Below the pieces are notes generated by a model that was not told where the DNA came from, ran no database searches, and worked only from the letters and a program-made list of their open reading frames with translations. The translations under genes were made by a program, and so were the position numbers. Of a stretch of DNA of 38,978 nucleotides, positions 8,981 through 35,892 are shown piece after piece (position 1 is the first letter of the stretch; each line of letters starts with the position of its first letter). Source of the DNA: a virus (Duplodnaviria; Heunggongvirae; Uroviricota; Caudoviricetes); IMG/VR virus record IMGVR_UViG_2645728091_000012; one strand, written 5' to 3'.

Positions 8981-8997
8981 ATTTAAGGATGATATAG

Positions 8998-19618: not shown

Positions 19619-20246
19619 GGCATTCACCCGCGTGGATGAAACCTTTGAGGCCATCCGCGACAGCCTGAATCAGCAGGCCATCAATAACATCGCCAGAAAG
19701 CTGGCACAGGATTTACGCCGCGCCCAGCAGGCGCGCATCCGGTCACAGAAAGCGCCGGACGGGACCGCATGGACACCACGCAGACGCCGCGTAACCCGGA
19801 TACAGGAGCGCATTCGCTTTATCTGGAATAACGAAGCACGCACGCTGAAAAACTGGCATCACGACACGGGGAAATACGGGCGAACCATTACCGGGTGGGA
19901 TGAGGATAAAAACAATATCCGCACGTTTTACCGGGATGACATCGACCGTTTTCTGGAAATACGCACCCGGCGCATCAACCAGGACAGCACAAAGCGCGTC
20001 CCCATGTTCGTAAAACTGCGCACCGCCCGCTACCTGAAAGCCCGTGCAGATGCTTCCGGTGTGACGGTGGGTTACAGCGGCGTGGCCGCACGTATTGCAC
20101 GCGTTCATCAGTTCGGTGAGCGCGATCAGGTTGCGCCGGGCATTTTCACCGATTACCCGGTACGTGAGCTGCTGGGTATCAGCCAGGCAGATGAGCGCCT
20201 GATTTATAACACGGTGCTGGGCCGGATTGCGGAGGCTGTACGGTGA
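19611..20246 (+). CDS. S: Tail completion / virion morphogenesis protein S-like
   Basis: Overlaps R stop; start could be GTG 19602 or ATG 19611. Confidence 0.65.
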   Translation: MDKAFTRVDETFEAIRDSLNQQAINNIARKLAQDLRRAQQARIRSQKAPDGTAWTPRRRRVTRIQERIRFIWNNEARTLKNWHHDTGKYGRTITGWDEDKNNIRTFYRDDIDRFLEIRTRRINQDSTKRVPMFVKLRTARYLKARADASGVTVGYSGVAARIARVHQFGERDQVAPGIFTDYPVRELLGISQADERLIYNTVLGRIAEAVR

Positions 20247-20824
20247 GCGCAGAACTCATGCGACTGCTGAGCAACATCATCCGTACCGGGATCATCTCTG
20301 AAGTTGATGAGGAATCCTGGTGCGTGCGCGTTCGCAGCGGCGAACTGGAAACAGGCTGGCTGCGCTGGAACACCACGCGCGCGGGAGCCTTCAATGTGTG
20401 GCTGCCGCCATCACCAGGCGAACAGGTGGTAATTGCCTGCATTGGCGGCAACCCGGAAACCGCCATGATAATTGGCAGCCTGTGGAGTGATGCCAGTCCG
20501 GCCCCCGGCAAAAGCCTGAAAGAAATCGTGATCAGCGCGCCGGATGGCGCGGTGTTCCGCTACGACACGGACGCAGGCGCACTGAGCGCCAGCGGCATGA
20601 AAACAGCCACCCTGCAGGCATCCGTCAGCGTGACACTGGATACGCCCGTCGTGGAATGCACAGACCTTCTGAGAACAGCGACGCTTGACGTCACAAAAGG
20701 GGGAAAGATGAGCGGCAATATCACGCACAGCGGCGGCGATTTCACCTCAAACGGCATCACAGTGCATACGCATAAGCACGGTGGCGTTAAAGGTGGCAGC
20801 GATTCGACAGGAGGCCCGCAGTGA
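20243..20824 (+). CDS. V: Baseplate spike/assembly protein V-like
   Basis: 193-aa ORF, position before W-J-I. Confidence 0.75.
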   Translation: MSAELMRLLSNIIRTGIISEVDEESWCVRVRSGELETGWLRWNTTRAGAFNVWLPPSPGEQVVIACIGGNPETAMIIGSLWSDASPAPGKSLKEIVISAPDGAVFRYDTDAGALSASGMKTATLQASVSVTLDTPVVECTDLLRTATLDVTKGGKMSGNITHSGGDFTSNGITVHTHKHGGVKGGSDSTGGPQ

Positions 20825-21171
20825 CAACCCGCTACACAGGAATGAATCCGGACGGGACGGGAAACCTGAACGATATGGAGCACCTGAAACAGTCAGTCAG
20901 GGACATCCTGATCACCCCGCTGGCAAGCCGGGTTATGCGACGGGAATATGGCAGCCTTGTGCCTGATTTGATTGACGAACCCATGAATAACACAACTCGT
21001 CTGCAATGCATGAGTGCTGCCGTGATTGCGCTGACACGATGGGAACCCCGCATTGCCCTGGACGCCATCGACGTTGTCTGGAAAGCGGGAGGCCGCGCCG
21101 GGGTGACGCTGTCGGGCACTGTCATGCAGACCATGCAGAATGTTGAGTTAACCATCACGCTGAAGGAGTAA
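20821..21171 (+). CDS. W: Baseplate protein W (gp25-like)
   Basis: 116-aa ORF, size and position. Confidence 0.8.
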   Translation: MTTRYTGMNPDGTGNLNDMEHLKQSVRDILITPLASRVMRREYGSLVPDLIDEPMNNTTRLQCMSAAVIALTRWEPRIALDAIDVVWKAGGRAGVTLSGTVMQTMQNVELTITLKE

Positions 21172-21174
21172 ATC

Positions 21175-22071
21175 ATGCCCGCCGTTGACCTTTCCCAGTT
21201 ACCGGAACCCGCCATCATCGCGGAGCCTGACTTTGAGGCAATTCTGGCTGACACAAAGGCCATGATGATTGCGGCTTATCCCGCCGAACAGCGTGAAGCC
21301 GTCTCCGCCGCGCTGGAGCTGGAATCGGAACCCCTGAACGTTATCGCCCAGACAACAGCGTTTCGTGAAATGCTGTTACGCCAGCGGGTCAATGAGGGGG
21401 CACGCGCCTGCATGTTAAGCCACAGCGCCGGGACAGACCTGGACAACCTCGCGGGCAATATGAACACAAAGCGCCTGACCATCACTCCGGCAACGGATAC
21501 CACCGACGCAGTGATGGAAAGTGACACCTCGCTGAGACTGCGGGCACAGCGGGCGTACGATGGCCTGAGTGTTGCTGGCCCGTCAGGTGCATACGAGTAT
21601 TTTGCACGCAGCGCCAGCGGTCTGGTGCGTGATGCGCGGGCCATCAGCCCGTCTCCGGCCTGTGTGACGGTTTCCATTCTGTCCACTGAAGGCGACGGCA
21701 CAGCAACGGAGGCGTTGCTTAATACCGTTCGCGCCGTTCTGAATGCAGAGGATACCCGTCCGGTGGCCGACCGCCTGACCGTACAGAGCGCCAGAATCGT
21801 GACATGGCGGCTGAATGCAAAACTGTACTTTTACCCCGGCCCGGAATCCGAACCTATTCTGGCCGCGGCTGAATCGTCGTTCAGGAAGTGGCTGGCTGAG
21901 CAGGGGCTTATCGGTCAGGACGTGGCGTTGTCCGCCATTGCTGCCGCACTGCATGTGCACGGTGTGCAACGCGTGGAGATAATCGAACCCACACAGAATA
22001 TGGCCATCAGCGACATACAGGCGGCGCGCTGTGAGTCATTCACCATCAGCGAAGGTGGGCGCAATGAGTAA
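21175..22071 (+). CDS. J: Baseplate assembly protein J-like
   Basis: 298-aa ORF, size and position. Confidence 0.8.
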   Translation: MPAVDLSQLPEPAIIAEPDFEAILADTKAMMIAAYPAEQREAVSAALELESEPLNVIAQTTAFREMLLRQRVNEGARACMLSHSAGTDLDNLAGNMNTKRLTITPATDTTDAVMESDTSLRLRAQRAYDGLSVAGPSGAYEYFARSASGLVRDARAISPSPACVTVSILSTEGDGTATEALLNTVRAVLNAEDTRPVADRLTVQSARIVTWRLNAKLYFYPGPESEPILAAAESSFRKWLAEQGLIGQDVALSAIAAALHVHGVQRVEIIEPTQNMAISDIQAARCESFTISEGGRNE

Positions 22072-22672
22072 TTCGTTGTTACCACCATCAGCCAGCAATT
22101 TCATGCGTTGTGCCGAAGCCGTCGGAACACGCATTACAGACATTCCGGTAGACCTCAACACGCTGTGGTCGCCGGACACCTGCCCGGTGCATCTGCTGCC
22201 TTATCTCGCCTGGGCGTTTTCCGTTGACCGCTGGGATCGCAACTGGCCGGAAGAGACAAAGCGACAGGTGATTCGTGATGCATGGCTGATACACCGACAC
22301 AAAGGGACCATCAGCGCACTGCGAAGAGCCGTGGAGCCTCTCGGTTACCTGATTGAAGTAAAGGAGTGGTGGCAACTCAACGAGGAGCCGGGAACATTTC
22401 GCATTGTTGTCGGAGTACTTGATCAGGGCATCACCGATGAAATGTATCAGGAACTTGAGCGCCTTATTGCGGATGCAAAACCAGTAAGTCGCCATCTGAC
22501 GGGGCTGGCGATCAGCCTGAGTGTGAACGGAAAGATTTTCGTTGGTACGGGATGCTATCACGGCGATGCCCTGACGGTTTATCCCTACACCCCGGAGTCC
22601 ATTATTGTCGAAGGGGACTATTTCCCTGCCCCGGCCATTCATTTAATTGATAATCTGAGAGTAAACGCATGA
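22064..22672 (+). CDS. I: Baseplate/tail protein I-like
   Basis: ATG 22064 overlapping J stop; same frame as ORF-track 22031 ORF. Confidence 0.7.
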   Translation: MSNSLLPPSASNFMRCAEAVGTRITDIPVDLNTLWSPDTCPVHLLPYLAWAFSVDRWDRNWPEETKRQVIRDAWLIHRHKGTISALRRAVEPLGYLIEVKEWWQLNEEPGTFRIVVGVLDQGITDEMYQELERLIADAKPVSRHLTGLAISLSVNGKIFVGTGCYHGDALTVYPYTPESIIVEGDYFPAPAIHLIDNLRVNA

Positions 22673-24702
22673 CAGTGAAATACTACGCCATTCTGACTAA
22701 TCAGGGCGCGGCACGACTGGCTAACGCGACGATGCTCGGCAGTAAGCTGAATCTGACGCAAATGGCCGTTGGTGATGCAAATGGTGTGTTACCAACACCA
22801 GACCCTGCACAAACAAAACTGATTAACCAGAAACGCATTGCACCGCTGAATCTTCTGAGTGTTGACCCTAACAATCAGAGCCAGATTATTGCGGAGCAAA
22901 TCATCCCTGAAAACGAGGGAGGATTCTGGATCCGTGAGATTGGTCTTTATGATGATGAAGGTGTACTCATTGCGGTGGCAAACTGCCCGGAAACGTACAA
23001 ACCGCAGTTGCAGGAAGGCAGTGGTCGTACCCAGACTATCCGCATGATTCTGGTTGTCACGAACACCGAAGCCATCACGCTGAAAATCGACCCGTCTGTG
23101 GTTCTGGCAACCCGCAAATATGTGGATGATAAAATCTCAGAGCACGAACAGTCACGACATCACCCGGACGCCTCGCTGACCGCAAAAGGTTTTACTCAGT
23201 TAAGCAGTGCAATTAACAGTGAATCAGAAACACTGGCCGCAACACCGAAAGCAGTTAAGGCTGCATATGACCTGGCTGACGGGAAATATACCGCCCAGAA
23301 CGCCACCACAACACAAAAAGGGATTGTTCAGCTCAGTAGCGCCACGAACAGCACGTCTGAAACGCTGGCAGCAACACCAAAAGCTGTTAAGGCGGTAATG
23401 GATGAAACGAACAAGAAAGCACCATTAAACAGCCCGGCACTGACCGGAACGCCAACAACACCAACAGCGCCACAGGGGACTAATAGTACCCAGATCGCAA
23501 GCACGGCTTTCGTTATGGCCGCGATTGCCGCACTTGTAGATTCGTCACCTGATGCACTAAACACGCTGAGCGAACTGGCTGCGGCGCTGGGCAATGACCC
23601 GAATTTTGCGACCACCATGACTAACGCGCTTGCGGGTAAGCAACCGAAAGATGCCACCCTGACGGCGCTGGCCGGGCTTGTTACTGCGGCAGACAGGTTT
23701 CCGTATTTTACGGGGAATGACGTTGCCAGTTTGGCAACCCTGACAGAAGTCGGGCGGGATATTCTTGCGAAATCGACCGTTGCCGCTGTTATCGAATACC
23801 TCGGTTTACAGGAAACGGTAAACAAGGCTGGTAACGCCGTTCAGCGTTCCGGCGATAAAATGACCGGAGAACTGAAAATTGGAACGATGAATGCGCTGCG
23901 AATTTTTAATGATGCCTTCGGTCTTATTTTCCGCCGTTCAGAAGAGTCCCTTCATTTCATCCCTACGGCTGAAGGACAAGGCGAAAACGGTGATATCGGC
24001 CCATTAAGGCCATTCGCTATAAATCTAAGAACAGGTGCTATATATGTCAGCCACGGGGCCAAAATTGAAGGAGGTCTAGCTATTGGTGCTACTGATAACG
24101 CACTGGGTGAAAACTCCATTGTTCTGGGAGATAACGACACCGGATTTAGGCAAGATGGAGATGGTATTATTAGCTTCTATTCAAATGGTTCGCGCATCGG
24201 ACATATTGATGGGTTAGGATTACATCTTTATAAAGATATTGAATCTAATTGCAGCAATTTTAGATTAAAAAGTAATTACCGCCACCACATTACATTCACC
24301 AACGAAGACGGAAGTATTCGTATGTTTTTGTGGAAAGATAACGGTGGTGATGGTGTTCATATTAATAACGGTTCAGATGGTGGTGGTGATTTCATTTTTA
24401 AAACAGATGGGGGATTTGCGCTGGGAAGTGGTGCGCAAGTTGCGTCTAGTGGCGATATTTATGGTTCAGTGTGGGGAAACAACTGGTTAAGCACATGGCT
24501 GCATAATCATGTCGTTCGGGATATTCGTCTTGGCAGCATTGAATATAAAAACGTATGGCGCGACTACGGCTTTGGCGATGCGTCAGGTTATGTTTTAACA
24601 GCCGCAATTAACGGCAATGCGGATGATCTTGTCGACACTGTTGCCAGAAGGCCAATTCAGAAATTGATTGGGGGAATATGGTACAACGTGGGGAGTGTTT
24701 AA
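22669..24702 (+). CDS. H: Tail fibre protein H (constant N-terminal part plus currently expressed variable C-terminal part)
   Basis: 677-aa ORF; internal tandem repeat [13 protein letters not shown] x2; contains recombination site at 23789-23814; AT-rich C-terminal receptor-binding part. Confidence 0.85.
23789..23814. repeat. Left crossover site of invertible segment (gix/hix-like, 26 bp)
   Basis: TTATCGAATACCTCGGTTTACAGGAA matches the reverse complement of the site at 26741-26766 at 24 of 26 positions. Confidence 0.8.
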
Positions 24703-24703
24703 G

Positions 24704-25231
24704 ATGATGCACTTAAAAAATATTACTGCTGGCAACCCTAAAACAAAAGAACAATACCAGCTAACTGAAAAAGCGGGCGTGGTATGGCTCTTTTGCGAAG
24801 ATGGCAAAAACTGGTATGAGGAACAAAAGAATTTTCAGCCAGACACCATAAAAATTGCTTACGATGAGAACAACATCATCGTTGCTGTCAGTAAAGACGT
24901 TTCAACTATTAATCCTGAAGGGCTAAGCATAGTTGAAGTTCCTGATATTACGGCAAATCGTCGCGCAGACAATAACGGAAAATGGATGTTTCTGTATGGT
25001 AAAGTAGTAAAGAGGGAATATACAGAACAGGAACTGCAACAACAGGCCGAATCACAAAAGGCCGCGTTGCTTTCTGAAGCAGAAAGCGTTATTCAGCCAC
25101 TGGAACGCGCTGTCAGGCTGAACATGGCAACAGATGAGGAGCGTAGCCGACTGGAAGCATGGGAGCGCTACAGTGTTCTGGTCAGCCGTGTGGATACGGC
25201 AAATCCTGAATGGCCACAAAAGCCTGAATAA
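24704..25231 (+). CDS. G: Tail fibre assembly chaperone (gpG-like), active-orientation copy
   Basis: Starts [20 protein letters not shown]; paired with H variable part. Confidence 0.8.
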
Positions 25232-25236
25232 AAATT

Positions 25237-25256
25237 AAGGCCCGATAGCGGGCCTT
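25237..25256. terminator. Hairpin between the convergent tail-fibre assembly genes
   Basis: AAGGCCCG-ATAG-CGGGCCTT perfect 8-bp stem; A/T-rich flank on one side. Confidence 0.5.
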
Positions 25257-25259
25257 GTC

Positions 25260-25793
25260 TCATTCTGGTTGTTCTGGAAACGTTACTGGCAGGCTGGAGG
25301 TGTCTGTAGATTCGACTTTCTGCGCATAGAGCATCCACTCGGTTAATTTTTGTTTATTCTCGTCGGAAATGATGCCCAGCCGTAGCTGTGAGTCCCATAG
25401 CTGGGTTTTATCCCTGACAAGTTGCAACAGGCTTTGCTTTTCATTTTCCGCCTGTTGCCTCTGCTCTTCCCCGGTATAAGTTCGCTTTATCACTGCGCCA
25501 TCTTTGAACATCCATTTACCCGAAATATCAGCCCGGCGATTTGCTGTAATATCAGGTAATTCAACGACGCTTGCGCCTTCCGGATTAATTGCTGAAACAT
25601 CCTTTTCAATACAAATAATAACGCCGTTATGGTCATAGGCCATTTTCAATGTGTCTGGCCGGAAATTCTTTTGTTCCTCATACCAGTTTTTTCCATCATC
25701 TGAATAAAGCCATTTGATGTTAAATTGCTTTGTTAGCTGGTATTGCTCTTTTGTTTTAGGATTGCCAGCAGTAATGTTTTTTAAGTGCATCAT
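25260..25793 (-). CDS. Alternative tail fibre assembly chaperone (G')
   Basis: 177 aa; N-terminus nearly identical to G, then diverges. Confidence 0.8.
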   Translation of the reverse strand: MMHLKNITAGNPKTKEQYQLTKQFNIKWLYSDDGKNWYEEQKNFRPDTLKMAYDHNGVIICIEKDVSAINPEGASVVELPDITANRRADISGKWMFKDGAVIKRTYTGEEQRQQAENEKQSLLQLVRDKTQLWDSQLRLGIISDENKQKLTEWMLYAQKVESTDTSSLPVTFPEQPE

Positions 25794-25795
25794 AA

Positions 25796-26740
25796 TTAAA
25801 TACTCCCTGCGTTATACCACGTTCCATTAATGCAATACTGAATTGGCCTTGCCTGAGTTGTATCAATTAATTCATCACGGTTTCCGTTAACTGAACCAGT
25901 AACGACATAACCTGACCTGTCAGACCAGCCAGGACCATTCCATGTCTGAACAGATGACAGACCGCCAAGGCGAATACCTGTAATAAACCTTGAGTTACAT
26001 TCTGCCTGCGTATATGCACCAACATCTCCCGCAGAGGGTTTGCGTGTTGTGGTGTAAAACTCTGACCAGTTAGCTTCAAAGCCATAACCATCACGCGCTG
26101 AACGATAAAAGATACCGCCATTTCTGTAATTCACGCGGAACTGTACAGCAGGGCAACTCCCCGCATTCATATTAAAGTGGAGGATTAATGTCGATGCGCC
26201 ACTGATATCTGCATTATAAACGCCGCTATTCCAGTTCCAGCCAACAGCTTTATCATTTGCAACCCTGCTTCCTGTTTGCCCTAAAGCAAATGCAGGCTGC
26301 TGGTTTTTCGTGTTGTAGTCTCGTCGCCAGCCAGGAGCGTAAGCATCACCATGATTAATATAAGTGAATTGAGCGTTAGTGATTCCGCCGCCGCTGGACG
26401 TACTCGGCGTGGTAACGCGTATGGTCATTGCGCCGCGAGTGCCAATAACTTCCACCACAGCACCTGCAAGACAAATATTTCCGCAACCTGTATCTGTAAT
26501 GACCTTATTGTTTGCATAAGCCCATGAGCCTTTGCACATCCAGTAAGGATGGTTAAATGCTCCCTGACTCTCCAGCCACGAAATAAATTGCGCGGTTGTC
26601 CAGACCTGACTATCACCACCAATATTCAGCCATGCGCTATATGCGCGGCAGGCACCAATATTTTTGGTGAAGGTATCTTTTCCTGGAATATCTGCGCCGT
26701 TCTGGTTTTTCTGTAATGCGCCAGAAGCCTGATTTACCGT
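25796..26740 (-). CDS. Alternative tail-fibre C-terminal variable segment (silent orientation, no own start)
   Basis: Reading the minus strand from the right crossover site is open and in frame with the H constant part after inversion; C-terminus GTWYNAGSI parallels H's GIWYNVGSV. Confidence 0.75.
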   Translation of the reverse strand, partial: TVNQASGALQKNQNGADIPGKDTFTKNIGACRAYSAWLNIGGDSQVWTTAQFISWLESQGAFNHPYWMCKGSWAYANNKVITDTGCGNICLAGAVVEVIGTRGAMTIRVTTPSTSSGGGITNAQFTYINHGDAYAPGWRRDYNTKNQQPAFALGQTGSRVANDKAVGWNWNSGVYNADISGASTLILHFNMNAGSCPAVQFRVNYRNGGIFYRSARDGYGFEANWSEFYTTTRKPSAGDVGAYTQAECNSRFITGIRLGGLSSVQTWNGPGWSDRSGYVVTGSVNGNRDELIDTTQARPIQYCINGTWYNAGSI

Positions 26741-26766
26741 TTCCTGTAAACCGAGGTTTTAGATAA
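26741..26766. repeat. Right crossover site of invertible segment (gix/hix-like)
   Basis: TTCCTGTAAACCGAGGTTTTAGATAA, inverted copy of the site inside H. Confidence 0.8.
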
Positions 26767-26820
26767 TGGCCGTTTCCGGCCTGCATGGCATGATTTGCGC
26801 TTTTGGACGGGAGATTCAGT

Positions 26821-27411
26821 GTGCTGATTGGTTATGTAAGGGTATCAACAAATGACCAGAATACAGACCTGCAACGAAACGCTCTTGTTTGTGCAGGATG
26901 TGAACAAATATTTGAAGATAAATTAAGCGGAACAAAGACAGACCGACCGGGATTAAAACGCGCTTTAAAGCAGCTTCAAAAAGGTGACACGCTGGTTGTC
27001 TGGAAACTGGATCGCCTTGGGCGAAGCATGAAACATCTGATTTCTCTCGTCGGAGAACTACGGGAGCGAGGGATTAATTTTCGCAGTCTGACCGACAGCA
27101 TAGATACATCTTCTCCAATGGGGCGTTTTTTCTTCCACGTGATGGGTGCCCTGGCTGAAATGGAACGTGAATTAATTGTTGAACGTACACTGGCCGGACT
27201 GGCGGCAGCGCGCGCACGGGGGCGCACAGGCGGACGTCGACCGAAGCTGACAAAAGAACAGCATGAGCAAATAGCAAGGCTGATTAAAAACGGTCACGAC
27301 AGAAAACAACTGGCAATAATTTACAGCATTGGTATATCGACAATTTATCGTTACCACCCCGCAGGAGAATCAAGTGGAACAATTGAGAAGAGTAAACAAA
27401 ATAACCGCTAA
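26821..27411 (+). CDS. Serine DNA invertase (Gin/Hin/Pin/Cin family)
   Basis: Begins (V)LIGYVRVSTNDQ with catalytic Ser context; resolvase-type N-terminal domain and C-terminal HTH; next to invertible segment. GTG start at 26821 preferred over ORF-track TTG 26803. Confidence 0.85.
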   Translation: MLIGYVRVSTNDQNTDLQRNALVCAGCEQIFEDKLSGTKTDRPGLKRALKQLQKGDTLVVWKLDRLGRSMKHLISLVGELRERGINFRSLTDSIDTSSPMGRFFFHVMGALAEMERELIVERTLAGLAAARARGRTGGRRPKLTKEQHEQIARLIKNGHDRKQLAIIYSIGISTIYRYHPAGESSGTIEKSKQNNR

Positions 27412-27434
27412 TCTGGCCATTAGCGGTTTTTGTG
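27403..27434. terminator. Bidirectional intrinsic terminator between invertase and gene U
   Basis: AACCGCTAAT-CTGGCC-ATTAGCGGTT stem-loop flanked by A-run upstream and T-run downstream. Confidence 0.65.
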
Positions 27435-27439
27435 TTAAA

Positions 27440-27934
27440 TCAGAACAGCCCTTTAACGGAGCTGGCCGCGCTGTTAAGGGATGATGTGACCTTATCTTTG
27501 AAGCCGGACAGCATATCACTGAACGATGAGGATTGCAGGCGTTCCCGCAAATCCTCATCGCAGCGTTCAAGAGTCAGTGAAAACTCTATCTTTTTCGCCT
27601 TGCCGTAGCGATCAAACTCGGAACGGGTCGTATTCGTTTCAGTCAGTACATACATGCCGTAAATCTGCCCGACACCATCAATCAGAGGCCAGGGGCGTCC
27701 TGTATATGCCTGCGTGGTCAGCAACGAAAGCGACACTTCGCCACCTGTAATTTCAGGATAAAGCACGCCGGAAAGCACGATGCGATCATCACCTGCGCCG
27801 ATATACTGCCAGCTTGCTGAACGGTTAACGCGTTCATTTTTCACATGCCGCCAGCTTTTGTTTTGCTGTAACTGCTGATGCGGCAATGTGCGCAGCTCAA
27901 AAACAAACATGCCGTAGATCATCATCATGGCCAT
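27440..27934 (-). CDS. U: Tail protein U-like
   Basis: 164-aa ORF; gpU-like features (SWRH, YGMYV). Confidence 0.8.
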   Translation of the reverse strand: MAMMMIYGMFVFELRTLPHQQLQQNKSWRHVKNERVNRSASWQYIGAGDDRIVLSGVLYPEITGGEVSLSLLTTQAYTGRPWPLIDGVGQIYGMYVLTETNTTRSEFDRYGKAKKIEFSLTLERCDEDLRERLQSSSFSDMLSGFKDKVTSSLNSAASSVKGLF

Positions 27935-27940
27935 GACTCC

Positions 27941-30763
27941 TCAATCTTTATCGTAAAAACTGCCACGCCCGGCACGGGCGCGCCGTTCCATTTCTGCCCT
28001 GACCATTTCGCCAATCAGTTTCGCCAGTTCGCGGGGATTCTGTGTAACAACGTTATGCAGATGAACATGAATTTCACCGCCAAATCCGGAGGCAACAGGC
28101 TCCCGGTTACGGGAAGTTGCAGGAACTGATGCCACTGGCGATCGTATAGCCTCCGCCACCGGGCGGGAGCTGGCCGCAACAACAGGGACCAGCGCCGGAG
28201 GCAGCGGAGCCGGAACCACGGGTGTGATAGTAATTGCGGGGGCAGGCTTACTGACCTGCGCAATCTTCCGCTCCTGCCACTCCCCACGAACAGCAAGTGC
28301 GCGGGGCAGGTTCTTAAAGACAATATCGCCGGGGCCAATGCGTTTTTTCGTCTCATCAACCAGCTTACCTGTGTTATCAGCAATTTTGCTGAGTCTGCGT
28401 AGCGTACCGGTATTGTTGTCTGTGAGCGGTTTGTTGTCTCTGGGTTTATCGCCTTTTTTGTCGTCGACCTTATCTGACGGGGCCGGGCCGGGAGTCCATG
28501 GTTTCTGAACCATTTTCTTGAGAACCGGATCCCATTCCCACATTACAGGAGCCTTTGAAGCGTTCTCTATTTTCTTTCTCGCCCGTTCCGCTTCATCCGG
28601 AAGCACTCCGAGCTTTTCAAGTATCCACGCCAGTGAATCCATCAATGCTTTTGTTGGCGTCAGGACAAGCTCTATCGCTCCACCGAGTACCCTGCCGAAT
28701 ACCTCGCCAGCACTGGTACATTTATCCAGCGTTTCCTTGCTGGACTCCATCGGTGACAGCAGCGATTTAAACCAGTTAAAGACCTGAATAATCCCATCGC
28801 GCACGACATCAAAAACTGGACCGAACCGTTCAAAGGTTTCGCGCAACGGAGCCAGCCGTTCCATAATCCCACTGAACACCCCTGCATAAAACGCCTTGAT
28901 GGGTTCCCAGTATTTCCAGATGAGAACCGCCGCAGCCACAAACGCAGCAGCAATCAATCCGACCGGGCTGAACAGCGCCCCGATAGCGCCCCCCAGTAAC
29001 GAAACGGAACCCGTCACCATTCCCCATAGTGCTGGCAGGAGCCTGACAGCATTCATTGATCCGGTCAGGAGGGAAAAGCCAAGACGCAGTTTTGCCAGCG
29101 GGCCAGCAAGCACACCAATAGCCAACGACAACGAGCCGACCGTTGCAGTCATCGCCAGCAATGCCCCACCTGCAATCAGTAGCTGGCGCGTCAGTGCCGG
29201 ATGGGCCTGCGCCAGCGCCGTCACCTTTGATACCACCCGCGTGAGCCACTGCGTGACAGAACGCAGCGGACCGTCAATCAGATCTGCAATGCGGATGCGC
29301 AACCCTTCCCATGCACTGCCGAGTGATTTCAGATCGCCGTCAAGGTTGTTGTCCATAACCTTTGCTGTGCGTTCAGCCTCACCGCGCGCGCCTTCAAGTT
29401 CTTTTCTCAGTTTGGGTAAGGAGCCGTCACCCGCTGCATCAACGAGCGCCATAAACGATGTGAAAGCCTCTTCTCCGGCAATGTCCTTAAAGAACGATAC
29501 CCGGTCAACTTCCCCGTATTTGCGGGTGGCTTTATAAAGGTCGGCCAGTACATCCTCCATCGGGCGCATTTTGCCGTTCGCGTCAGAGACAGCCACACCC
29601 AGCTCTTTCAGCGCCTCTGCTGCCGCCTTTGGCGGTGATGCCAGACGAGCCAGGCTGGCACGCATTGCCGTCCCGGCATCACTCCCTCTGATGCCCATAT
29701 TCGCCAGCACGCCCGCCATCGCAGCGGCCTGCTCCAGCGATATTCCCAGCTTACCCGCCACCGGACCTGCATATTTCATGGTTTCGCCCAGCGCGCGAAG
29801 GTCAGTGTTGGTACGGGTAAACGCCGCTGTAAGCGTGTCGCCAACCCGGTCCATCTGGTCAGCAGAGAGGCCGAACTGCGTCAGGATATTTGAGCCAATA
29901 TCCGCCGTCTCGCCGAGATCCATACCGCCAGCCGTTGCCATGCTCAGCACGCCGGGAAGCGCAGCCTGAATGGCCTGCGGAGTAAAACCAGCCATTGCAA
30001 GAAATGCCTGTCCACTGGCGGCATCTCCAGCGGTGAACTGCGTTTCAGAGCCAAGTTTTAACGCCTGCTCACGCAGCGCCTTAAACTGTGGGCTGTTTTT
30101 GTCGATTCGCGTCAGTGCCTGAACGCGGGACATCTCTTTCCCGAACCCAATCGCGGGCTGCAAAAAACGCCCGGCAGCATAGCCGCCCGCCGCTGCCGCA
30201 CCTGTTGCCAGTGCACCACCTGTTTTCAGTTTTCCCGCGGTTTCCTGCGCGCGCGAATACCGCTCACGCGCCCGCGTTACACGCGCAAGCGCCTGCCGTT
30301 CGCGTTCAAGCTGGTTGTTGTACTGTTCGGTGCGTCTGATGGCCTGCTGGATGGTGTTATCGCTGCCTGTCAGGGAAATGCCGTGGCGTTTCAGCTCTCC
30401 GCCAAGTTCCCGCATTTTCTGAATTTCCCGTGTGCGCGATTCATTCAGGCGTTCAAGCCGGGTGCTTAACTGCTGCATCAGCTTTTGTTGTTTTTCGCTG
30501 AGCACTGTACCCGTGCGTTGTAACTGATTAAGGGCGTTAAGCTGGCGTCGTGCTTTCACGATGCCCGCATCCGCTTTACTGACAGCGTCACGGGCGCGCT
30601 CAAATGAACGCGCCTGACGCTCGAGATTTTTGATCGCCCCCTGCGTTCGCTGGATGGAGTCACCAAACTGCCCCATCAGGCGGCGGGCGTTTTCGGCAGG
30701 CCGGGTCAGCCTGTCAACGGCGCTGAAAGCGACCCGGATATCAAGAGTCTTCATTGTCTGCAT
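27941..30763 (-). CDS. T: Tail tape measure protein (gpT-like)
   Basis: 940 aa; coiled-coil N-terminal region, Gly/Ala-rich hydrophobic central region; follows the chaperone genes. Confidence 0.85.
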   Translation of the reverse strand: MQTMKTLDIRVAFSAVDRLTRPAENARRLMGQFGDSIQRTQGAIKNLERQARSFERARDAVSKADAGIVKARRQLNALNQLQRTGTVLSEKQQKLMQQLSTRLERLNESRTREIQKMRELGGELKRHGISLTGSDNTIQQAIRRTEQYNNQLERERQALARVTRARERYSRAQETAGKLKTGGALATGAAAAGGYAAGRFLQPAIGFGKEMSRVQALTRIDKNSPQFKALREQALKLGSETQFTAGDAASGQAFLAMAGFTPQAIQAALPGVLSMATAGGMDLGETADIGSNILTQFGLSADQMDRVGDTLTAAFTRTNTDLRALGETMKYAGPVAGKLGISLEQAAAMAGVLANMGIRGSDAGTAMRASLARLASPPKAAAEALKELGVAVSDANGKMRPMEDVLADLYKATRKYGEVDRVSFFKDIAGEEAFTSFMALVDAAGDGSLPKLRKELEGARGEAERTAKVMDNNLDGDLKSLGSAWEGLRIRIADLIDGPLRSVTQWLTRVVSKVTALAQAHPALTRQLLIAGGALLAMTATVGSLSLAIGVLAGPLAKLRLGFSLLTGSMNAVRLLPALWGMVTGSVSLLGGAIGALFSPVGLIAAAFVAAAVLIWKYWEPIKAFYAGVFSGIMERLAPLRETFERFGPVFDVVRDGIIQVFNWFKSLLSPMESSKETLDKCTSAGEVFGRVLGGAIELVLTPTKALMDSLAWILEKLGVLPDEAERARKKIENASKAPVMWEWDPVLKKMVQKPWTPGPAPSDKVDDKKGDKPRDNKPLTDNNTGTLRRLSKIADNTGKLVDETKKRIGPGDIVFKNLPRALAVRGEWQERKIAQVSKPAPAITITPVVPAPLPPALVPVVAASSRPVAEAIRSPVASVPATSRNREPVASGFGGEIHVHLHNVVTQNPRELAKLIGEMVRAEMERRARAGRGSFYDKD

Positions 30764-31279
30764 TCCCGCTGCGAAGTGCCGCCCGCTCGCGCCAGCTAAC
30801 CACTTCGCCGGGCGTCATCATGAAGATTTCGGCGGGCGACCAGTTAAAAATGGCGGCAATATCCGCCACCAGATCTTCGATGTGCTCAAAGCACACCAGG
30901 GTGATTACGCTGCCGTCTCCTGCACGCTCTTCGCGCCAGAGTCTGGCTCGCTCATAAAATTTACAGCCACAGCGCACAACTGAATAAAATCGCGTGACGA
31001 CATTTTTTTAATCATCACTTCATCCAGTCGTGGCGAGGTCACGCGAGGCAACAGCGTGAACATGGTATCCGCTTTCAGATTCAGCACATCAGACAGCGAC
31101 AGACCACGCAGGGATCCCGCCTGCTCAATAGCCCCGGTGATCTCCACATATGTGATTTTTTCGCCACCACGCTCAATTGGCCGGGAAAGTTTTACACCAC
31201 GTTCGACAGCCATATCCTCACCTGCCGTCACATCATCCGCTACGGTGTTATTCCGGGTTTCAGTATCGATATCTTTCAT
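30741..31279 (-). CDS. Tail assembly chaperone E+E' (-1 programmed frameshift product)
   Basis: -1 frame is open from 31007 to 30741 and overlaps the T start; a run of 7 A on the mRNA (plus-strand T7 at 31003-31009) lies where the -1 frame opens; analogous to P2 E/E' and lambda G/GT. Confidence 0.6.
30905..31279 (-). CDS. E: Tail assembly chaperone E
   Basis: 124-aa ORF between tail tube gene and tape measure gene. Confidence 0.75.
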   Translation of the reverse strand: MKDIDTETRNNTVADDVTAGEDMAVERGVKLSRPIERGGEKITYVEITGAIEQAGSLRGLSLSDVLNLKADTMFTLLPRVTSPRLDEVMIKKMSSRDFIQLCAVAVNFMSEPDSGAKSVQETAA

Positions 31280-31334
31280 CAGTTGTCTCCTTTTCAGTCA
31301 GAGGCGACGCACTGCGCCGCCTGCATATTACTTA

Positions 31335-31847
31335 TCAGCCAAGCCCAAGCGCGGAACGAATGCGGTCAGGCACAATGTCCTTGCCGTCCTTCCGGTAGAT
31401 GTGGTTCAACAGGTCGATTTCCCACAGCGGGCGATCGTTAACGCTCAGCTTGTAGTAGGTGTTTTTGACAGCGTAAGTGTGTGATGTGGCTTCGCCCTGT
31501 TTGGCCTCCCCCATATCAATTTCCGTCACACGCCCGCGCATCTCGATTTCATACAGATCGCTTTCTGCATCGGTGTAGTATTCACCCGCAAAACGCAGCA
31601 GCGTGCCGTCAATCGTGCCGCCATATTTAAGGAACAGCGCACGAACAGCTCCCCCCATGACAAAACTCGCATCAAGCGCGGAGTCGTCCAGACCGAGATC
31701 AATACTTACCGCCCCCATCATGCCACCACCACGATAGCTGTCGGTTTTGCGCGTCAGTTTGGGTGGCGTGACGGATGTCACTTTACCCACTTCGTTTTCA
31801 CCATCCACAAACAACGTAAAAAAGCGAAGATGTTTTGGTACAGCCAT
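31335..31847 (-). CDS. FII: Tail tube protein (gpFII-like)
   Basis: 170-aa ORF immediately after sheath gene. Confidence 0.8.
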   Translation of the reverse strand: MAVPKHLRFFTLFVDGENEVGKVTSVTPPKLTRKTDSYRGGGMMGAVSIDLGLDDSALDASFVMGGAVRALFLKYGGTIDGTLLRFAGEYYTDAESDLYEIEMRGRVTEIDMGEAKQGEATSHTYAVKNTYYKLSVNDRPLWEIDLLNHIYRKDGKDIVPDRIRSALGLG

Positions 31848-33031
31848 CAGGCACCTCCCAGCACCGCAAATGCGGGACCAAAGAATTCATCAGTAAACGA
31901 CTGGTAAAGCTCCATGTCTTCCAGCGGGGGAACAGGCGTATATTTGTAGCGAATACGCACACGCCCCTGACGTAAATTCGTGGTGCCGTTATCCACCACG
32001 TCATACCAGCACGACGCCCCAATCAGTTTCCCGGCAGTAACCAGTGAATCCAGTTTTGCCCTGATGGCACTGATAACATCTTTCACGTTCGCAGGCGTCA
32101 GTGGACTGTCGATGGTTTCAAACTGCGCTTCCGCAATTGAATCAGCCAGCACCTGTGCGGTTCGGGTATACACCTCAAAGATGTAGGCGTTCGTTTCCGG
32201 TGTGCGGTTGCCCCAGAAGCGGAACCCGTTGCGACGAATAATGGTCGTGATTTCTTTGTTGTTGAGGCTGTTGGCATCGCTGTCTTCGGCCTGCAACGAC
32301 CAGAACACATGCCTCGACATCCCCAGCACATTTTTAACCGGAACGTTGGACAGCGATTTGTGCCAGCCCTGCTCATGGTCAATGTACGCACGAAGGCCGC
32401 ACGCATAAGCAGGCGCGGGGAACGTTTCGTTTTTGCCACTTTTCGGGTTGTAGGCGATGAAGTCAGGCCATAAGAGCATCACCTCACGTTCGTTGAATTT
32501 CTGGCGGTAGGTAATCGCCTCAGCCATCGTGTTACAACCATGACATGCGGCATACACAAACGCGCGCAGTTTACCCGCAATCACGCACAGGGATTTTGTC
32601 ACCGCCTCCGTGTCCAGCTCCGGCGCGGCCAGAATACGCGGACGGTATCCGATGCTTTCATCCTGCTCTGCAACAAGCAGCGCATACATCCCCGTATAGC
32701 TGCCGTCAGATTCAGAACCACCGATAACCAGTTGATCCTGCGTCTTTCCGTTTTCTTCTTTGTGTTCAGCCACGCGAACGACGATCACCTTTGTGCTCAC
32801 CTGGTCTGCGATGGCCTTAAGCGCACGATAAAGCGTCCCCGTTGTCCCGCATTTTCCCAGCACGTCATTGACGCGGGTCAGCAGTGTGGGCTTGTTCAGC
32901 GGGAACAGCTTCGCGTCCGCATCATCCGCCGTTGCCACGATACCGATAACGCTGGAATCAACATCGTTAATCGCTGTTACCAGGTCGGTATTTTCCGTAA
33001 CACGGGCACCATGAAAACGAGTTTCACTCAT
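31847..33031 (-). CDS. FI: Contractile tail sheath protein (gpFI-like)
   Basis: 394 aa; gpFI-like (FPLNKP, LRAFVYA, WPDF, GWHKSLSNV, RNGFRFWGNRT, TPVPPLE). Confidence 0.85.
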   Translation of the reverse strand: MSETRFHGARVTENTDLVTAINDVDSSVIGIVATADDADAKLFPLNKPTLLTRVNDVLGKCGTTGTLYRALKAIADQVSTKVIVVRVAEHKEENGKTQDQLVIGGSESDGSYTGMYALLVAEQDESIGYRPRILAAPELDTEAVTKSLCVIAGKLRAFVYAACHGCNTMAEAITYRQKFNEREVMLLWPDFIAYNPKSGKNETFPAPAYACGLRAYIDHEQGWHKSLSNVPVKNVLGMSRHVFWSLQAEDSDANSLNNKEITTIIRRNGFRFWGNRTPETNAYIFEVYTRTAQVLADSIAEAQFETIDSPLTPANVKDVISAIRAKLDSLVTAGKLIGASCWYDVVDNGTTNLRQGRVRIRYKYTPVPPLEDMELYQSFTDEFFGPAFAVLGGA

Positions 33032-33106
33032 AGCTTCAGCCCCTTGTATCCGTTAAATGATTCGGCAACAATCATCACCCACCACGCGCGTAATCTCACC
33101 CCTGCG

Positions 33107-33136
33107 CCGTTCTCCCGACCCGGCGACAACAAAAAG
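33107..33136 (+). promoter_or_regulatory. Candidate late-promoter element upstream of gene D (CCGTTCTCC ... ACAACAAAAAG)
   Basis: Shares both motifs with the element upstream of gene O (14228-14273). Confidence 0.35.
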
Positions 33137-33187
33137 CAGTAACCCCCTCCGCACGCACATGCGACCATGCCGCACAGGGAGGGAAAG

Positions 33188-34297
33188 ATGACCGACACCA
33201 CCATGCAATTGCTCAGTCAGAGCACAGACCCCGTGAAAATGCCGGATTTTGATATTCTCGCGGAGGGTAAAACGCTGTCAGGCGTGGCAGAGCGCCTGAT
33301 GAGCCTGTCACTGACCGACAACCGGGGATTTGAAGCGGACCAGCTCACCATCACGCTGGATGATGCGGATGGTCAGTTGCAGCTACCGCCACGGGGCGCG
33401 CGCCTGACGGTTCTCATTGGCTGGAAAGGCGAACCGCTGACAGAAAAAGGCTCTTACATTGTCGATGAAATCGCACACGAAGGACCGCCGGACAGGCTGA
33501 CTGTTTCAGCCAGAAGCGCAGATTTTCGGGATGAATTTAACGTTAAACGTGAGGTGTCCTGGCATGATGTGACCGTTGAGCGTGTGGTATCCGCCATCGC
33601 TCATCGGTACGGTCTGAAACCGCAAATCAGCGAAATGCTGATGCATATCGAAATCGACCACGCCGACCAGACCGAAGAAAGTGACATGTCCTTCCTTACG
33701 CGCATGGCGGAAATGCTGGGCGCAATCACCACGGTAAAAAGCGGTAATCTGTTATTCATCATGCCCGGCGGTGGCGTGAACGCACAGGGCCAGCCGTTGC
33801 CATCGTTCGCCATCACACGCAGCAGCGGCGATCGCCATCAGTTCCGCATTGCTGACCGCGAGGCGTATACGGGGGTACGCGCTTACTGGCTTGATCTTAA
33901 TTACGGGAAAAAGAAAAAAGTCAGCGTGAAACGCCGCAAACCGCCAAAACCCAAAAAGGAGAAAAGCAGCAGCCGTGAAGGTGATTATATGGAAGGCGCG
34001 GAAGGCAATGTGTTTGTGTTACGCAAGACTTATCAGAACGAGCAGGCAGCAAGACGCGCAGCGGCGGCAAAGTGGCAGCAGCTACAACGCGGAGCCGCAT
34101 CATTCTCCATCATGCTGGCACGCGGACGCGCAGAACTCTACCCCGAAATGCATGGCACGGTAACAGGCTTTAAAAGCGAGATTGATAATCAGGACTGGAT
34201 TATTGCAAAAGCCGAGCACACCATTGATAACAGCGGCTTTACCACACAGCTTGAGCTTGAGGCAAAAATCCCGGAATGGATAGCAGAAACAGAGTGA
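33188..34297 (+). CDS. D: Tail protein D-like (late control gene D family)
   Basis: Start taken at MTDTTMQ (GGGAGGG RBS 5 nt upstream) rather than ORF-track 33167; size and family features match gpD. Confidence 0.75.
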   Translation: MTDTTMQLLSQSTDPVKMPDFDILAEGKTLSGVAERLMSLSLTDNRGFEADQLTITLDDADGQLQLPPRGARLTVLIGWKGEPLTEKGSYIVDEIAHEGPPDRLTVSARSADFRDEFNVKREVSWHDVTVERVVSAIAHRYGLKPQISEMLMHIEIDHADQTEESDMSFLTRMAEMLGAITTVKSGNLLFIMPGGGVNAQGQPLPSFAITRSSGDRHQFRIADREAYTGVRAYWLDLNYGKKKKVSVKRRKPPKPKKEKSSSREGDYMEGAEGNVFVLRKTYQNEQAARRAAAAKWQQLQRGAASFSIMLARGRAELYPEMHGTVTGFKSEIDNQDWIIAKAEHTIDNSGFTTQLELEAKIPEWIAETE

Positions 34298-34417: not shown

Positions 34418-35440
34418 TTAATACGCATTTAATTTAAATTTGTATTTGCCTTCTATGTAATGGATAAATTCAATTATGCTTTTTTCTATCGCATCTAATA
34501 TATGAATATATCCATCCCGATTTAAGGTCCTATCCAACTCAAAGTGATGAACTATCCCATGTCTATATTGTATGATTTCAGAAATTCGATTCTCAAGAAA
34601 ATCAACTGATTTTCCAATTCTTTTTTTCTTATAAAGAATCGCTCTCACATCTATATCCAGCCACTCTTTATATGCTTTATTTAGGTGGGTTAAGTTTTGA
34701 AAAGTGTAATTTCTTGCAATAACACTTTCTATTGAAATATTTCCTTTCTCTATCTCAAGCAGAATATCAAAATCAACTTTTTGCTTATACGATGTTCTTT
34801 TTGCTATTGCGAAAGGATCGTACTTTATAAGTATTTGAAAAGCTCTAGAGAAAAAATATTCAAACATAGCAACCGCAAAAGGTACTAATCCATTATATAT
34901 AACTCTACTGGGATCCATACATTGCATGTAATCAAAGTATTCGGATAAGCCGCCATCTTCCGGTAGGTTTAATTTAATAGAAGGTTCAGGTAAGGCATGT
35001 TTAACAGCGGAAATCTCATGATGGACATGATTAAATATTGAAGAAATGCCACGACTGATCGGACTACTAGAATCCTTCCATAGAGGAGCGTACCTATTTT
35101 TCCCATAATCACCTATAAGTGTTCCACCAAAAAGACTCCGTGCGCCTTTTAGAACATCATTAAGCATTTTTACATCATGCCAACTAGCGCTATATAAATT
35201 ACGCACATGCAATGCCCATTTATTACCAGATATGTGTAGTTCGTCATTTGAAACAGGATATATATCAGCCGAAACTCCATCTGTAGATTTGAAGTCCGTA
35301 TCATCAAACCAAGAGTAATTCAACGTTCCTTGGGGCCATTCCCACAAATGTTTACACCTTTTAAAACCTAAATTTTCAAGGTAATTTTTAAGTTCGTTTC
35401 TAGTTGCTTTTTTAGGGTACAGCGTTATATCTCTTCCCAT
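34418..35440 (-). CDS. Hypothetical accessory (moron) protein; weak HEPN-like Rx4H motif (RHGIVH) near C-terminus
   Basis: 340-aa ORF antisense to flanking late genes, markedly AT-rich, inserted between D and ogr; AT-rich promoter-like flank. Confidence 0.6.
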   Translation of the reverse strand: MGRDITLYPKKATRNELKNYLENLGFKRCKHLWEWPQGTLNYSWFDDTDFKSTDGVSADIYPVSNDELHISGNKWALHVRNLYSASWHDVKMLNDVLKGARSLFGGTLIGDYGKNRYAPLWKDSSSPISRGISSIFNHVHHEISAVKHALPEPSIKLNLPEDGGLSEYFDYMQCMDPSRVIYNGLVPFAVAMFEYFFSRAFQILIKYDPFAIAKRTSYKQKVDFDILLEIEKGNISIESVIARNYTFQNLTHLNKAYKEWLDIDVRAILYKKKRIGKSVDFLENRISEIIQYRHGIVHHFELDRTLNRDGYIHILDAIEKSIIEFIHYIEGKYKFKLNAY

Positions 35441-35631: not shown

Positions 35632-35892
35632 ATGTTCCGTTGTCCGCTTTGTGCCGCATCTGCCCGTATCCGCACAAGTCGTCCGGAAAATGATTCAAAC
35701 ACCGTGCGGCAAAAATATTACCAGTGTAACAATCTGGAATGCGGCGTATGCTTCTCAACACTGGAAGCTTTCCATAAATTCACATCGAAACACGCCTCCG
35801 GCGTTCACTCTTCAGAAGGTATCCCGTGGCATGAGCTACCAGCTTCACACAGGGGAAACAATCAGATGAGTTTGCCTTTACCTAAGAATTAA
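35632..35892 (+). CDS. ogr: Late-gene transcriptional activator, Ogr/Delta zinc-finger family
   Basis: MFRCPLCAA...RTSR...YQCNNLEC: C-x2-C...C-x4-C zinc finger as in P2 Ogr; AAGGGAGG RBS. Confidence 0.85.
   Translation: MFRCPLCAASARIRTSRPENDSNTVRQKYYQCNNLECGVCFSTLEAFHKFTSKHASGVHSSEGIPWHELPASHRGNNQMSLPLPKN

Follow-up and report, generated by a model that had tools for sequence, protein, structure and literature searches.

The 38,978-nucleotide stretch of viral DNA analysed here in its entirety (the window; IMG/VR record IMGVR_UViG_2645728091_000012) contains a P2-like tail module in which the genes from FI to U lie on the strand opposite to gene D. This raises the question of whether such an order is an assembly artefact, one of two states of a segment turned over by the neighbouring invertase, or a fixed feature of a phage group, and of how D, parted from U, can be transcribed. 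The reading favoured here, with a probability of about 0.8, is that of one old and fixed inversion, which did not arise from the invertase and in which the promoters of D and FI have one Ogr site in common.

Gene Content and Orientation of the Tail Module

Gene identities and strands were established by Pfam and PHROGs searches, which found all six components of the contractile-tail module of P2-like phages (Peduoviridae), namely FI, FII, E/E', T, U and the hub protein D, at 33-48% identity to the P2 counterparts. The minus strand carries U (27440-27934; PF06995 Phage_P2_GpU, 5.5e-39; phrog_76), the tape measure protein T (27941-30763; PF10145, 2.3e-58; phrog_28), the chaperone E (30905-31279; PF10109, E = 2.1e-4, under the curated cutoff; phrog_103) with the overlapping E' frame (30741-30977; PF06528 Phage_P2_GpE; phrog_1756), the tail tube protein FII (31335-31847; PF04985 Phage_tube, 2.1e-45) and the tail sheath protein FI (31847-33031; PF04984, PF22671 and PF17482; phrog_23, 5e-125). 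The E and E' frames together (30741-31279, minus strand) are predicted to encode the tail assembly chaperone, including an E+E' frameshift product. The plus strand carries the baseplate hub and late control gene D (33188-34297 with its start corrected; PF05954 Phage_GPD; phrog_52), the V-W-J-I-H-G genes and an ogr-type late activator gene (35632-35892; PF04606 Ogr_Delta, 1.1e-12), the product of which is a zinc finger protein with the cysteine motif CX2C-X24-CX4C.

The F operon of phage P2 (FI-FII-E-E'-T-U-D, followed by ogr) encodes the same protein families (D 48%, FI 45% and U 45% identical), has the same internal order from FI to U and relies on the same kind of Ogr-type activator and TGT-N12-ACA-type site. 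In P2, however, a single promoter, PF, serves genes that lie on one strand throughout, and D directly follows U, the annotated coding sequences sharing one base, whereas here the FI-U block (27440-33031) has the opposite orientation, and D forms a separate unit that has a ribosome-binding site and a predicted promoter to itself. Both P2 and RE-2010 are annotated with FI-FII-E-T-U-D-ogr and V-W-J-I-H-G on one strand, and this canonical co-orientation is absent from the window. The searches confirm the strand assignments made in the sequence-only reading, and the gene calls bear out its description of D as separated from U and divergent from FI. Its length for the FI-D gap, 135 bp, had been measured from a spurious upstream ATG; the homology of D to Pfam and PHROGs families begins at residue 8 of the open reading frame starting at 33167, while the ATG at 33188 is kept among relatives, is preceded by the ribosome-binding site GGAGGG and gives a D of the same length as that annotated in phage P88. 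Since D starts at 33188, the gap is 156 bp long (33032-33187).

Distribution of the Inverted Gene Order

Phage P88 and the genus Xuanwuvirus (Peduoviridae), which includes Citrobacter phage PhiSM, are 92-96% identical to the window at the DNA level and collinear with it from the invertase to D, the FI-D gap included, and the strands annotated in P88 are the same. Both P88 and PhiSM are viable phages (PMC5285337; PMC6456863); the papers on P88, SEN4/5 and PhiSM do not discuss the gene order. Only the cargo distinguishes the window from P88: here, D and ogr are separated by a 340-aa orphan gene, and A and Q by a methyltransferase/ATPase pair, while in P88 hok-like genes follow ogr.

The collinear layout, with the invertase followed by U, T, E, FII and FI on the minus strand and then by D, was found with a 7.7-kb query in 13 phage records, P88 among them (88-97% of the query), and in 1104 of 5426 complete Escherichia coli genomes. 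Of 1370 complete E. coli genomes with a match to the FI-D junction, 1355 have it unbroken, and a synthetic P2-type junction leading from U to D, sought in E. coli genomes, was joined in none of 1411. Among prophages of about 20 genera of Enterobacterales, 43 loci were informative (D 64-98% identical). In every one of them U-T-E-FII-FI and the genes D and ogr occupy opposite strands, and V-W-J-I-H, where in range, are on the strand of D, the exception being locus L048. A D homologue is present in 523 phage records. Salmonella phage SEN5 (D 63%) and Klebsiella phage Kp4871-3 (D 73%) also have the inverted order; the canonical order is that of P2, RE-2010, AP3, ENT90, PHL101 and a Ralstonia phage (D 42-53%). 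The window thus displays the trait of the P88-like clade, whose members have U-T-E-FII-FI inverted, with the tail-fibre/cargo region on one side and D on the other, and a gap of about 156-198 bp between the divergent genes FI and D.

The arrangement had appeared unusual and suspect from the sequence alone. P88, the E. coli and other Enterobacterales genomes and the loci of SEN5 and Kp4871-3 amply demonstrate that it is common in related phages; the inversion is real but ordinary, and represents the known, fixed gene order of a large P2-like group comprising P88 and its relatives. P2 does not provide a template for every P2-like prophage, which calls for caution in annotation and quality-control pipelines; since about a quarter of complete E. 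coli genomes possess the FI-D junction, the layout should not trigger flags for rearrangement or misassembly.

Invertase Gene and Edges of the Inverted Block

A gene for a Gin/Hin-type serine DNA invertase (26803-27411, plus strand; Resolvase and HTH_7 domains; PHROG 125) precedes the block; the 5' portion that was queried matches gin of phages Mu and D108 at about 92-96% DNA identity. The H/G tail-fibre segment is bounded by two 26-bp gix-like sites (23789-23814 and 26741-26766), which, with the invertase and alternative H/G C-termini, constitute a system like the Mu G segment with Gin and the P1 C segment with Cin. This system spans only 23789-26766 and does not reach the tail block, which is devoid of such sites and shows no switching. 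The Gin-type invertase would turn over only the H/G segment between its own gix sites, and a preprint describes a P88-type prophage that flips the GpH tail-fibre segment (10.1101/2022.05.07.487787).

The block does begin right after the invertase gene, as had been observed, 28 nt past its stop codon and across a bidirectional terminator-like hairpin (27403-27428; 10-bp stem, T-runs on either strand) located between the convergent invertase and U genes. The hairpin forms the left edge of the inverted block, and for roughly half of the matches in E. coli, similarity to relatives ends here, at about 27434. This neighbourhood is coincidental. The inversion is shared by relatives that lack an invertase and in which a glycosyltransferase or O-acetyltransferase gene takes its slot, and it is present in VG35A2 and O157:H7 MB9-1, neither of which has an invertase there. 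In ENT90, conversely, an invertase-like gene stands immediately before FI, yet the order is canonical. Cryptic gix-like sites, which had been proposed as something to look for at both junctions, were sought with the full 26-mer and with half-sites, and only chance-level matches were obtained: 13-15 of 26 positions at the junctions, with a chance background of up to 16-17 across the window, and 12 half-site matches against 11.2 expected. Cryptic gix or hix sites at the block junctions were rejected on these scans. No long inverted repeats surround the tail block, the only strong ones in the window belonging to the H/G segment.

Origin of the Inversion

The distribution of the order, the relatives that lack an invertase and the lack of gix-like sites at the junctions together point to an old, fixed inversion without any link to the invertase. 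The segment, consisting of the F-operon promoter region and FI-FII-E/E'-T-U, would have been flipped once, long ago, in a phage ancestral to a single clade of P2-like phages (Peduoviridae) that infect Enterobacterales; Xuanwuvirus with P88, Reginaelenavirus, Senquatrovirus and numerous prophages would belong to this clade, and the orientation of the segment would have remained fixed since. Such an event would have cut D off from U and left it facing away from the FI promoter, next to that promoter's upstream side.

Other explanations of the order can be weighed against the same data. That the junctions are assembly artefacts, a concern raised by the sequence-only reading, has their departure from the P2 order as its sole support; both junctions recur, at identities reaching 100%, in sequenced isolates of phages and in complete genomes that were assembled independently and number from hundreds to more than a thousand, which refutes misassembly and leaves this explanation with a practically negligible probability. 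It could also be supposed that the tail block forms another invertible segment, served by the adjacent Gin-type invertase or another recombinase, so that the window presents one of two states. The 28-nt distance from the invertase gene would suit this supposition, as would weak gix-like matches in opposite orientation at the two ends of the block (27436, plus, and 33031, minus; 14-15 of 26). These matches, however, fall inside the chance range, the opposite state was encountered in none of the 1411 E. coli genomes, the orientation is the same in invertase-less relatives and over about 20 genera, and flipping would disrupt a mirror-symmetric promoter region and the convergent terminator; the invertible-segment reading is effectively refuted. 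It is improbable, too, though less extremely so, that the inverted order arose several times or spread via module exchange and not by one ancestral event. P2-like phages are mosaic, other tail-gene rearrangements exist, such as the placement of T upstream of V in PHL101, and Smp131 has rearranged operons (PMC3931495). Against multiple origins stand the clean split in D identity (at least 63% in inverted and at most 53% in canonical genomes), on which the conclusion of a single origin depends, and the FI-D gap, which is homologous throughout the inverted genomes, with identical spacing.

Predicted Late Promoters in the FI-D Gap

The P2 late-promoter consensus is TGT-N12-ACA (PMC3931495). A partially dyad-symmetric element of this type, predicted to be an Ogr/Delta-type activator dyad, is found in the FI-D gap as TCT-N12-ACA (33111-33128), inside GTTCT-N12-ACAACAAAAAG (33109-33136), and agrees with the consensus in five of six defined bases, with TCT instead of TGT. 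At exactly 34 nt from the dyad, predicted -10 hexamers are placed on either side, GATGAT for the FI promoter (33071-33076, minus strand) and, as its mirror, GACCAT for the D promoter (33163-33168, plus strand). In Ogr/Delta/B-dependent late promoters, the activator element is centred about 55 bp upstream of the transcription start. The proposed layout (-10 on the minus strand, 34 nt, TCT-N12-ACA, 34 nt, -10 on the plus strand) would put the starts at about 33064 for FI and 33175 for D, with the dyad about 55 bp upstream of both and a short D leader of about 13 nt.

Conservation was counted in 34 distinct relatives, in which the FI-D gap has largely diverged between elements; the sequences are related, so the counts overstate their independence. 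The N12 spacing of the dyad is kept in all 34 and the right half ACAAC in 33, while the left half reads TGT in 12, TCT in 20 and CCT in 2; the dyad of SEN5 is a perfect TGT-N12-ACA. The FI-side hexamer conforms to xAxxAT in 34 of 34 relatives at invariant spacing, and the D-side hexamer, which follows a conserved CGCGCGCATG-type block, has A as its second and T as its sixth base in all of them, its spacing being invariant in 32; measured as distances of 40, 12 and 36 nt, the spacings are kept in 34, 34 and 32 relatives, respectively. The FI-D gap of SEN5 shares this mirror geometry, and so does the P-O gap of P2, where the dyad TGT-N12-CCA is located 34 nt from the A2/T6 hexamers TAGCCT and GAAACT. 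The P2 promoters PP and PO also serve back-to-back late operons, as in the FI-D layout, although the genes served differ. A scan of the FI-D gap for the sigma-70 consensus revealed no promoter, as expected for activator-dependent promoters.

The conservation among the 34 relatives makes a late promoter of D's own, suggested from the sequence alone, the most plausible interpretation, and one activator site is predicted to be common to FI and D, as are promoter activity, the starts and Ogr dependence. D would now be read from its own Ogr-dependent late promoter, the activator dyad of which also belongs to the FI promoter. The more specific proposal that the old inversion created a bidirectional late promoter, with one Ogr site midway between mirror-image -10 hexamers activating both FI-U and D, stands at about even odds. 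If it is true, the site also activates ogr in those many relatives that have ogr immediately after D, so that late positive feedback is kept, and the divergent design of the P/O type has been copied onto the tail genes.

A doubtful but still reasonable alternative is that the dyad serves the FI promoter only, and that D is transcribed from a weak constitutive sigma-70 promoter or through a separate activator site that went unrecognised, with another role for the conserved D-side block. The P-O gaps of both the window and SEN5 contain a properly spaced hexamer on one side only, which makes one-sided use of a dyad the normal case; on the minus strand, the extension of TGTTGT type is similar to the gene-facing P2 sites upstream of FI and V, and the D-side hexamer GACCAT is weak in the window. 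Yet the A2/T6 pattern of this hexamer and its spacing persist while the flanks diverge, the consensus scan offers no sigma-70-like promoter for D, which cannot be read from its divergent upstream neighbour and so must have a promoter, and the P-O gap of P2 itself shows the two-sided geometry. With the shared site as the preferred reading, the FI-D control region would represent a clean natural case for asking whether one Ogr-type site can drive two divergent late promoters, and would also show how an inversion can split a phage operon without loss of late regulation.

Related Elements in the P-O Gap

The sequence-only reading had described one motif pair in both the FI-D gap and the region upstream of O. 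A late-promoter-type element is indeed common to the two gaps, but the motifs had been mis-paired in the P-O gap, with a spacing of 27 nt versus 10 nt. CCGTTCTCC has two exact matches in the window, at 14228 and 33107, whereas ACAACAAAAG occurs exactly only in the P-O gap, its counterpart in the FI-D gap being ACAACAAAAAG; a search for the pair with an allowed gap of 5-20 nt gave no match because of the 27-nt spacing in one gap and an extra A in the other. The equivalent P-O dyad is GTTCT-N12-ACAACAAAAG (14247-14273), and the core GTT[GC]T-N12-ACA is confined in the window to 14247-14266 and 33109-33128. Exact TGT-N12-ACA was not found in the late intergenic regions of the window, where the sites have TCT; this form was noticed only after the relatives had been aligned.

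The P-O dyad is probably the activator site of the P promoter, with TAATCT (minus strand) at the 34-nt spacing towards P. Towards O, no usable hexamer is present at this spacing, so the P-O gap of the window, unlike that of P2, does not have the two-sided layout. A search for the 34-nt geometry at the O promoter of the window and SEN5, and upstream of V, gave no convincing site, and the 34-nt rule is incomplete, since it leaves the O promoter in the window and SEN5 unexplained. The P-O gap was also footprinted in 80 IMG/VR loci, the O proteins of which are 81-100% identical; the gap DNA is near-invariant, and these loci are too close to be informative. In many of them, CCGTTCTCC reads CTGTTCTCC.

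Organisation of the Tail Genes

The window contains a complete P2-like prophage within an E. coli chromosomal segment, with an integrase gene at 1-1020 (minus strand) and the host genes TagO and flk in the right flank, beyond ogr. Pfam and PHROG searches confirmed all gene names given in the sequence-only reading: tail protein U (27440-27934), T (27941-30763), E (30905-31279) with the E' frame (30741-30977), FII (31335-31847) and FI (31847-33031), all on the minus strand, and D (start corrected to 33188), the Ogr/Delta zinc-finger protein (35632-35892) and a resolvase-family invertase (26803-27411) on the plus strand, which also carries V-W-J-I-H-G (20243-25231). In P2 and Salmonella phage RE-2010, V-W-J-I-H-G is followed by FI-FII-E-T-U-D-ogr on a single strand; since these phages keep all the genes co-oriented, the FI-U block of the window, lying on the opposite strand, is indeed inverted relative to P2, as had been proposed. 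The block also begins right after the invertase gene, as noted earlier, 28 nt past its stop codon, and a hairpin with T-runs on both strands (27403-27428) is common to the convergent invertase and U genes.

The divergent gap between FI and D had been put at 135 bp. Homology to the D family starts at residue 8 of the ORF beginning at 33167 (PHROG search), and the ATG conserved in 34 aligned relatives, preceded by a GGAGG-type ribosome-binding site, is at 33188; the D length in the P88 annotation matches this start. Because D starts at 33188 and not at 33167, the gap is 156 bp long (33032-33187). The 33167 ATG falls partly within the predicted -10 hexamer of D.

Prevalence and Origin of the Inverted Order

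The inversion is real, yet this gene order is ordinary and fixed in a phage clade that is very common. The impression that the arrangement is unusual did not survive comparison: a 7.7-kb query spanning the invertase, U to FI and D was collinear with 13 phage records (coverage 88-97%, identity 92-96%), including Escherichia phage P88, whose annotated strands are the same as in the window, Xuanwuvirus P884B11 and Citrobacter phage Shae_phiSM, and with 1104 of 5426 complete E. coli genomes. Misassembly, raised earlier as something to exclude, can be dismissed as well, the FI-D junction (801-bp query) being intact in 1355 of 1370 matching genomes. The alternative state was represented by a hypothetical P2-type junction in which the last 400 nt of U run into the first 400 of D; matches to both halves occurred in 1411 genomes, though they were adjacent in none of them (0/1411). 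Therefore, the orientation of the block is fixed, without switching, and an assembly artefact is impossible. The clade is already represented by sequenced, classified phages; no comment on the gene order was found in the searched literature. Two otherwise collinear P88-like records, NC_049344.1 (520873) and NC_049341.1 (503458), contain an IS100 element (IS21 family) within the invertase-to-D region, and their annotated tape measure and sheath genes are each split into two entries.

A scan with the D protein, using one genome per species, gave 47 loci, which were classified by tblastn with the window proteins. U-T-E-FII-FI is opposite in strand to D and ogr in all 43 loci with sufficient flank (43/43), and V-W-J-I-H is on the strand of D wherever it is in range, except in Trabulsiella odontotermitis. 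The source genera include Salmonella, Edwardsiella, Serratia, Erwinia, Pantoea, Enterobacter, Klebsiella, Kosakonia, Brenneria, Pectobacterium, Symbiopectobacterium, Rouxiella and others, with D 64-98% identical to that of the window. The inverted layout was also found in Salmonella phage SEN5 (Senquatrovirus, D 63%) and Klebsiella phage Kp4871-3 (Reginaelenavirus, D 73%), while the order is canonical where D is at most 53% identical (RE-2010, P2, Burkholderia AP3, Erwinia ENT90, Mannheimia PHL101 and a Ralstonia phage). This clean split by D identity, together with the homology of the FI-D gap, suggests that the clade's ancestor underwent a single, old inversion. The arrangement is functional, since both P88 and PhiSM are viable and form plaques (PMC5285337; PMC6456863).

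Mannheimia phage PHL101 shows another tail-gene rearrangement in Peduoviridae, with T located upstream of the V-W-J-I-H cluster and not between E and U. Two contigs filed under Firmicutes, from Vagococcus sp. WN89Y (which has the full tail block besides D) and a Planococcaceae MAG, encode D 98-100% identical to that of the window; these matches are probably due to contamination or mis-binning.

Invertase and the Invertible Segment

The neighbouring invertase is not involved in the block orientation. What lies to the left of U varies: collinearity across the invertase-U junction was seen in only 621 genomes, and in most others similarity starts exactly at the U stop/hairpin. E. coli VG35A2 and O157:H7 MB9-1 have a family-9 glycosyltransferase and a serine O-acetyltransferase gene, respectively, in the slot beside U, without the invertase and with the same orientation of the tail block; ENT90 has an invertase-like gene immediately before FI, and its order is canonical. 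The true substrates of the enzyme are 26-bp gix-like sites at 23789-23814 (inside H) and 26741-26766 (before the invertase), and a P88-type prophage in ST131 isolates is reported to invert exactly this GpH tail-fibre segment reversibly (preprint, 10.1101/2022.05.07.487787). The search for cryptic gix-like sites at both block junctions gave best 26-mer matches of 13-15/26, below the chance matches of 16-17 elsewhere in the window, and half-site matches occurred at chance frequency. In its queried 5' portion, the invertase gene is ~92-96% DNA-identical to gin of Mu and D108, which, set against an inversion common to genera with 63% identical D, suggests that the invertase was acquired far more recently than the inversion.

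At 26700-27200, this 5' portion and the end of the invertible segment (23789-26766) next to it are ~92-96% DNA-identical to gin and the G-segment boundary in Mu, D108 and SfMu-like phages, in a setting of P2-like tail genes. The pattern resembles the outcome of a recent exchange of modules between Mu-like and P2-like phages.

Predicted Control Region between FI and D

In the alignment of the FI-D gap from 34 distinct relatives, most of the sequence has drifted freely and three elements are kept. One is a dyad of the Ogr/Delta activator type, whose right half, GACAACAA, hardly varies, whose left half reads TGT (12), TCT (20) or CCT (2) and whose spacing is always 12 nt. A minus-strand hexamer (GATTAT, GAATAT or GATGAT) lies towards FI, and towards D a CGCGCGCATG-type block precedes AATCAT, AACTAT, GATCCT or GACCAT. 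In these two hexamers, predicted -10 elements, positions 2 and 6 are A and T, respectively, in 34/34 relatives, and the distances of 40, 12 and 36 nt are kept in 34/34, 34/34 and 32/34, respectively. The window layout is exactly mirror-symmetric: the dyad TCT-N12-ACA (33111-33128, centre 33119.5) is separated by 34 nt from GATGAT (33076 to 33071, minus strand) and by 34 nt from GACCAT (33163-33168, plus strand). The P2/P4 late element is centred near -55, and the dyad centre lies ~55 bp from both predicted starts, assuming a start ~7 nt beyond each hexamer. SEN5 has the same mirror design, but with a perfect TGT-N12-ACA, the consensus of Ogr-activated P2 late promoters (PMC3931495); it also recurs in the P-O gap of a P2 record (TAGCCT, 34 nt, TGT-N12-CCA, 34 nt, GAAACT).

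From the conserved dyad and hexamers, their invariant spacing and the likeness to SEN5 and the P2 P-O gap, we infer a bidirectional late promoter serving FI and D from a shared site, the sole mildly new element here. The F-operon promoter region may have moved along with its genes in the inversion, which would have set a symmetric activator site beside D, and D would have gained (or kept) a mirror-positioned -10 element. As ogr follows D immediately in most relatives, it too could remain under late control through the predicted D promoter.

Public records often annotate a small 'hypothetical protein' in this gap (window 33011-33187; P88 record 33155-33286), on the other strand in SEN5. These annotations are probably spurious, since the aligned gaps contain indels of lengths not divisible by three and diverge freely between the promoter elements.

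The sequence-only reading had described a motif pair common to the FI-D gap and the region upstream of O. A shared element does exist, but it was mis-paired. CCGTTCTCC has exact matches in the window only at 14228 and 33107, and ACAACAAAAG is exact in the P-O gap, whereas the FI-D gap reads ACAACAAAAAG; that pairing gives spacings of 27 and 10 nt. The true shared element is GTTCT-N12-ACAACAAAAG at 14247-14273 and GTTCT-N12-ACAACAAAAAG at 33109-33136, and its core, GTT[GC]T-N12-ACA, occurs in the window only at 14247-14266 and 33109-33128. It is better described as a P-type and F-type late site than as a motif upstream of O, because the properly spaced hexamer of the P-O gap, TAATCT, points to P, not O; no properly placed activator site for an O promoter was found in the window or SEN5. 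A second GTTCT, 17 nt upstream, makes up the copy at 14228, which reads CTGTTCTCC in many relatives. Three related elements are spaced 17 nt apart in the P-O gap (14228-14273), namely GTTCT (14230), GTTCT (14247) and ACAAC (14264), and only the last two form a dyad.

Cargo Genes

A low-GC (~32%) two-gene cargo is located between replication gene A and portal gene Q (8135-10695, plus strand). The first gene encodes a D12-class adenine methyltransferase (PADLOC PD-Lambda-5_B, 8.7e-122) and the second a 565-aa AAA_15/AAA_21 ATPase with Gabija-, Septu- or PARIS-type likeness (~1e-16); they are probably an anti-phage defence pair in a known variable slot of P2-like phages. A 143-aa ORF between this pair and Q (10853-11284, minus strand) had no Pfam or PADLOC match. 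Another ORF (340 aa, 38% GC; 34418-35440, minus strand) is inserted between D and ogr and runs opposite to both; it had no PHROG or PADLOC match, and its sole Pfam match was a sub-threshold one to HEPN (RiboL-PSP; E = 1.2e-4). The version of the right end with this ORF is common to 60 E. coli genomes.
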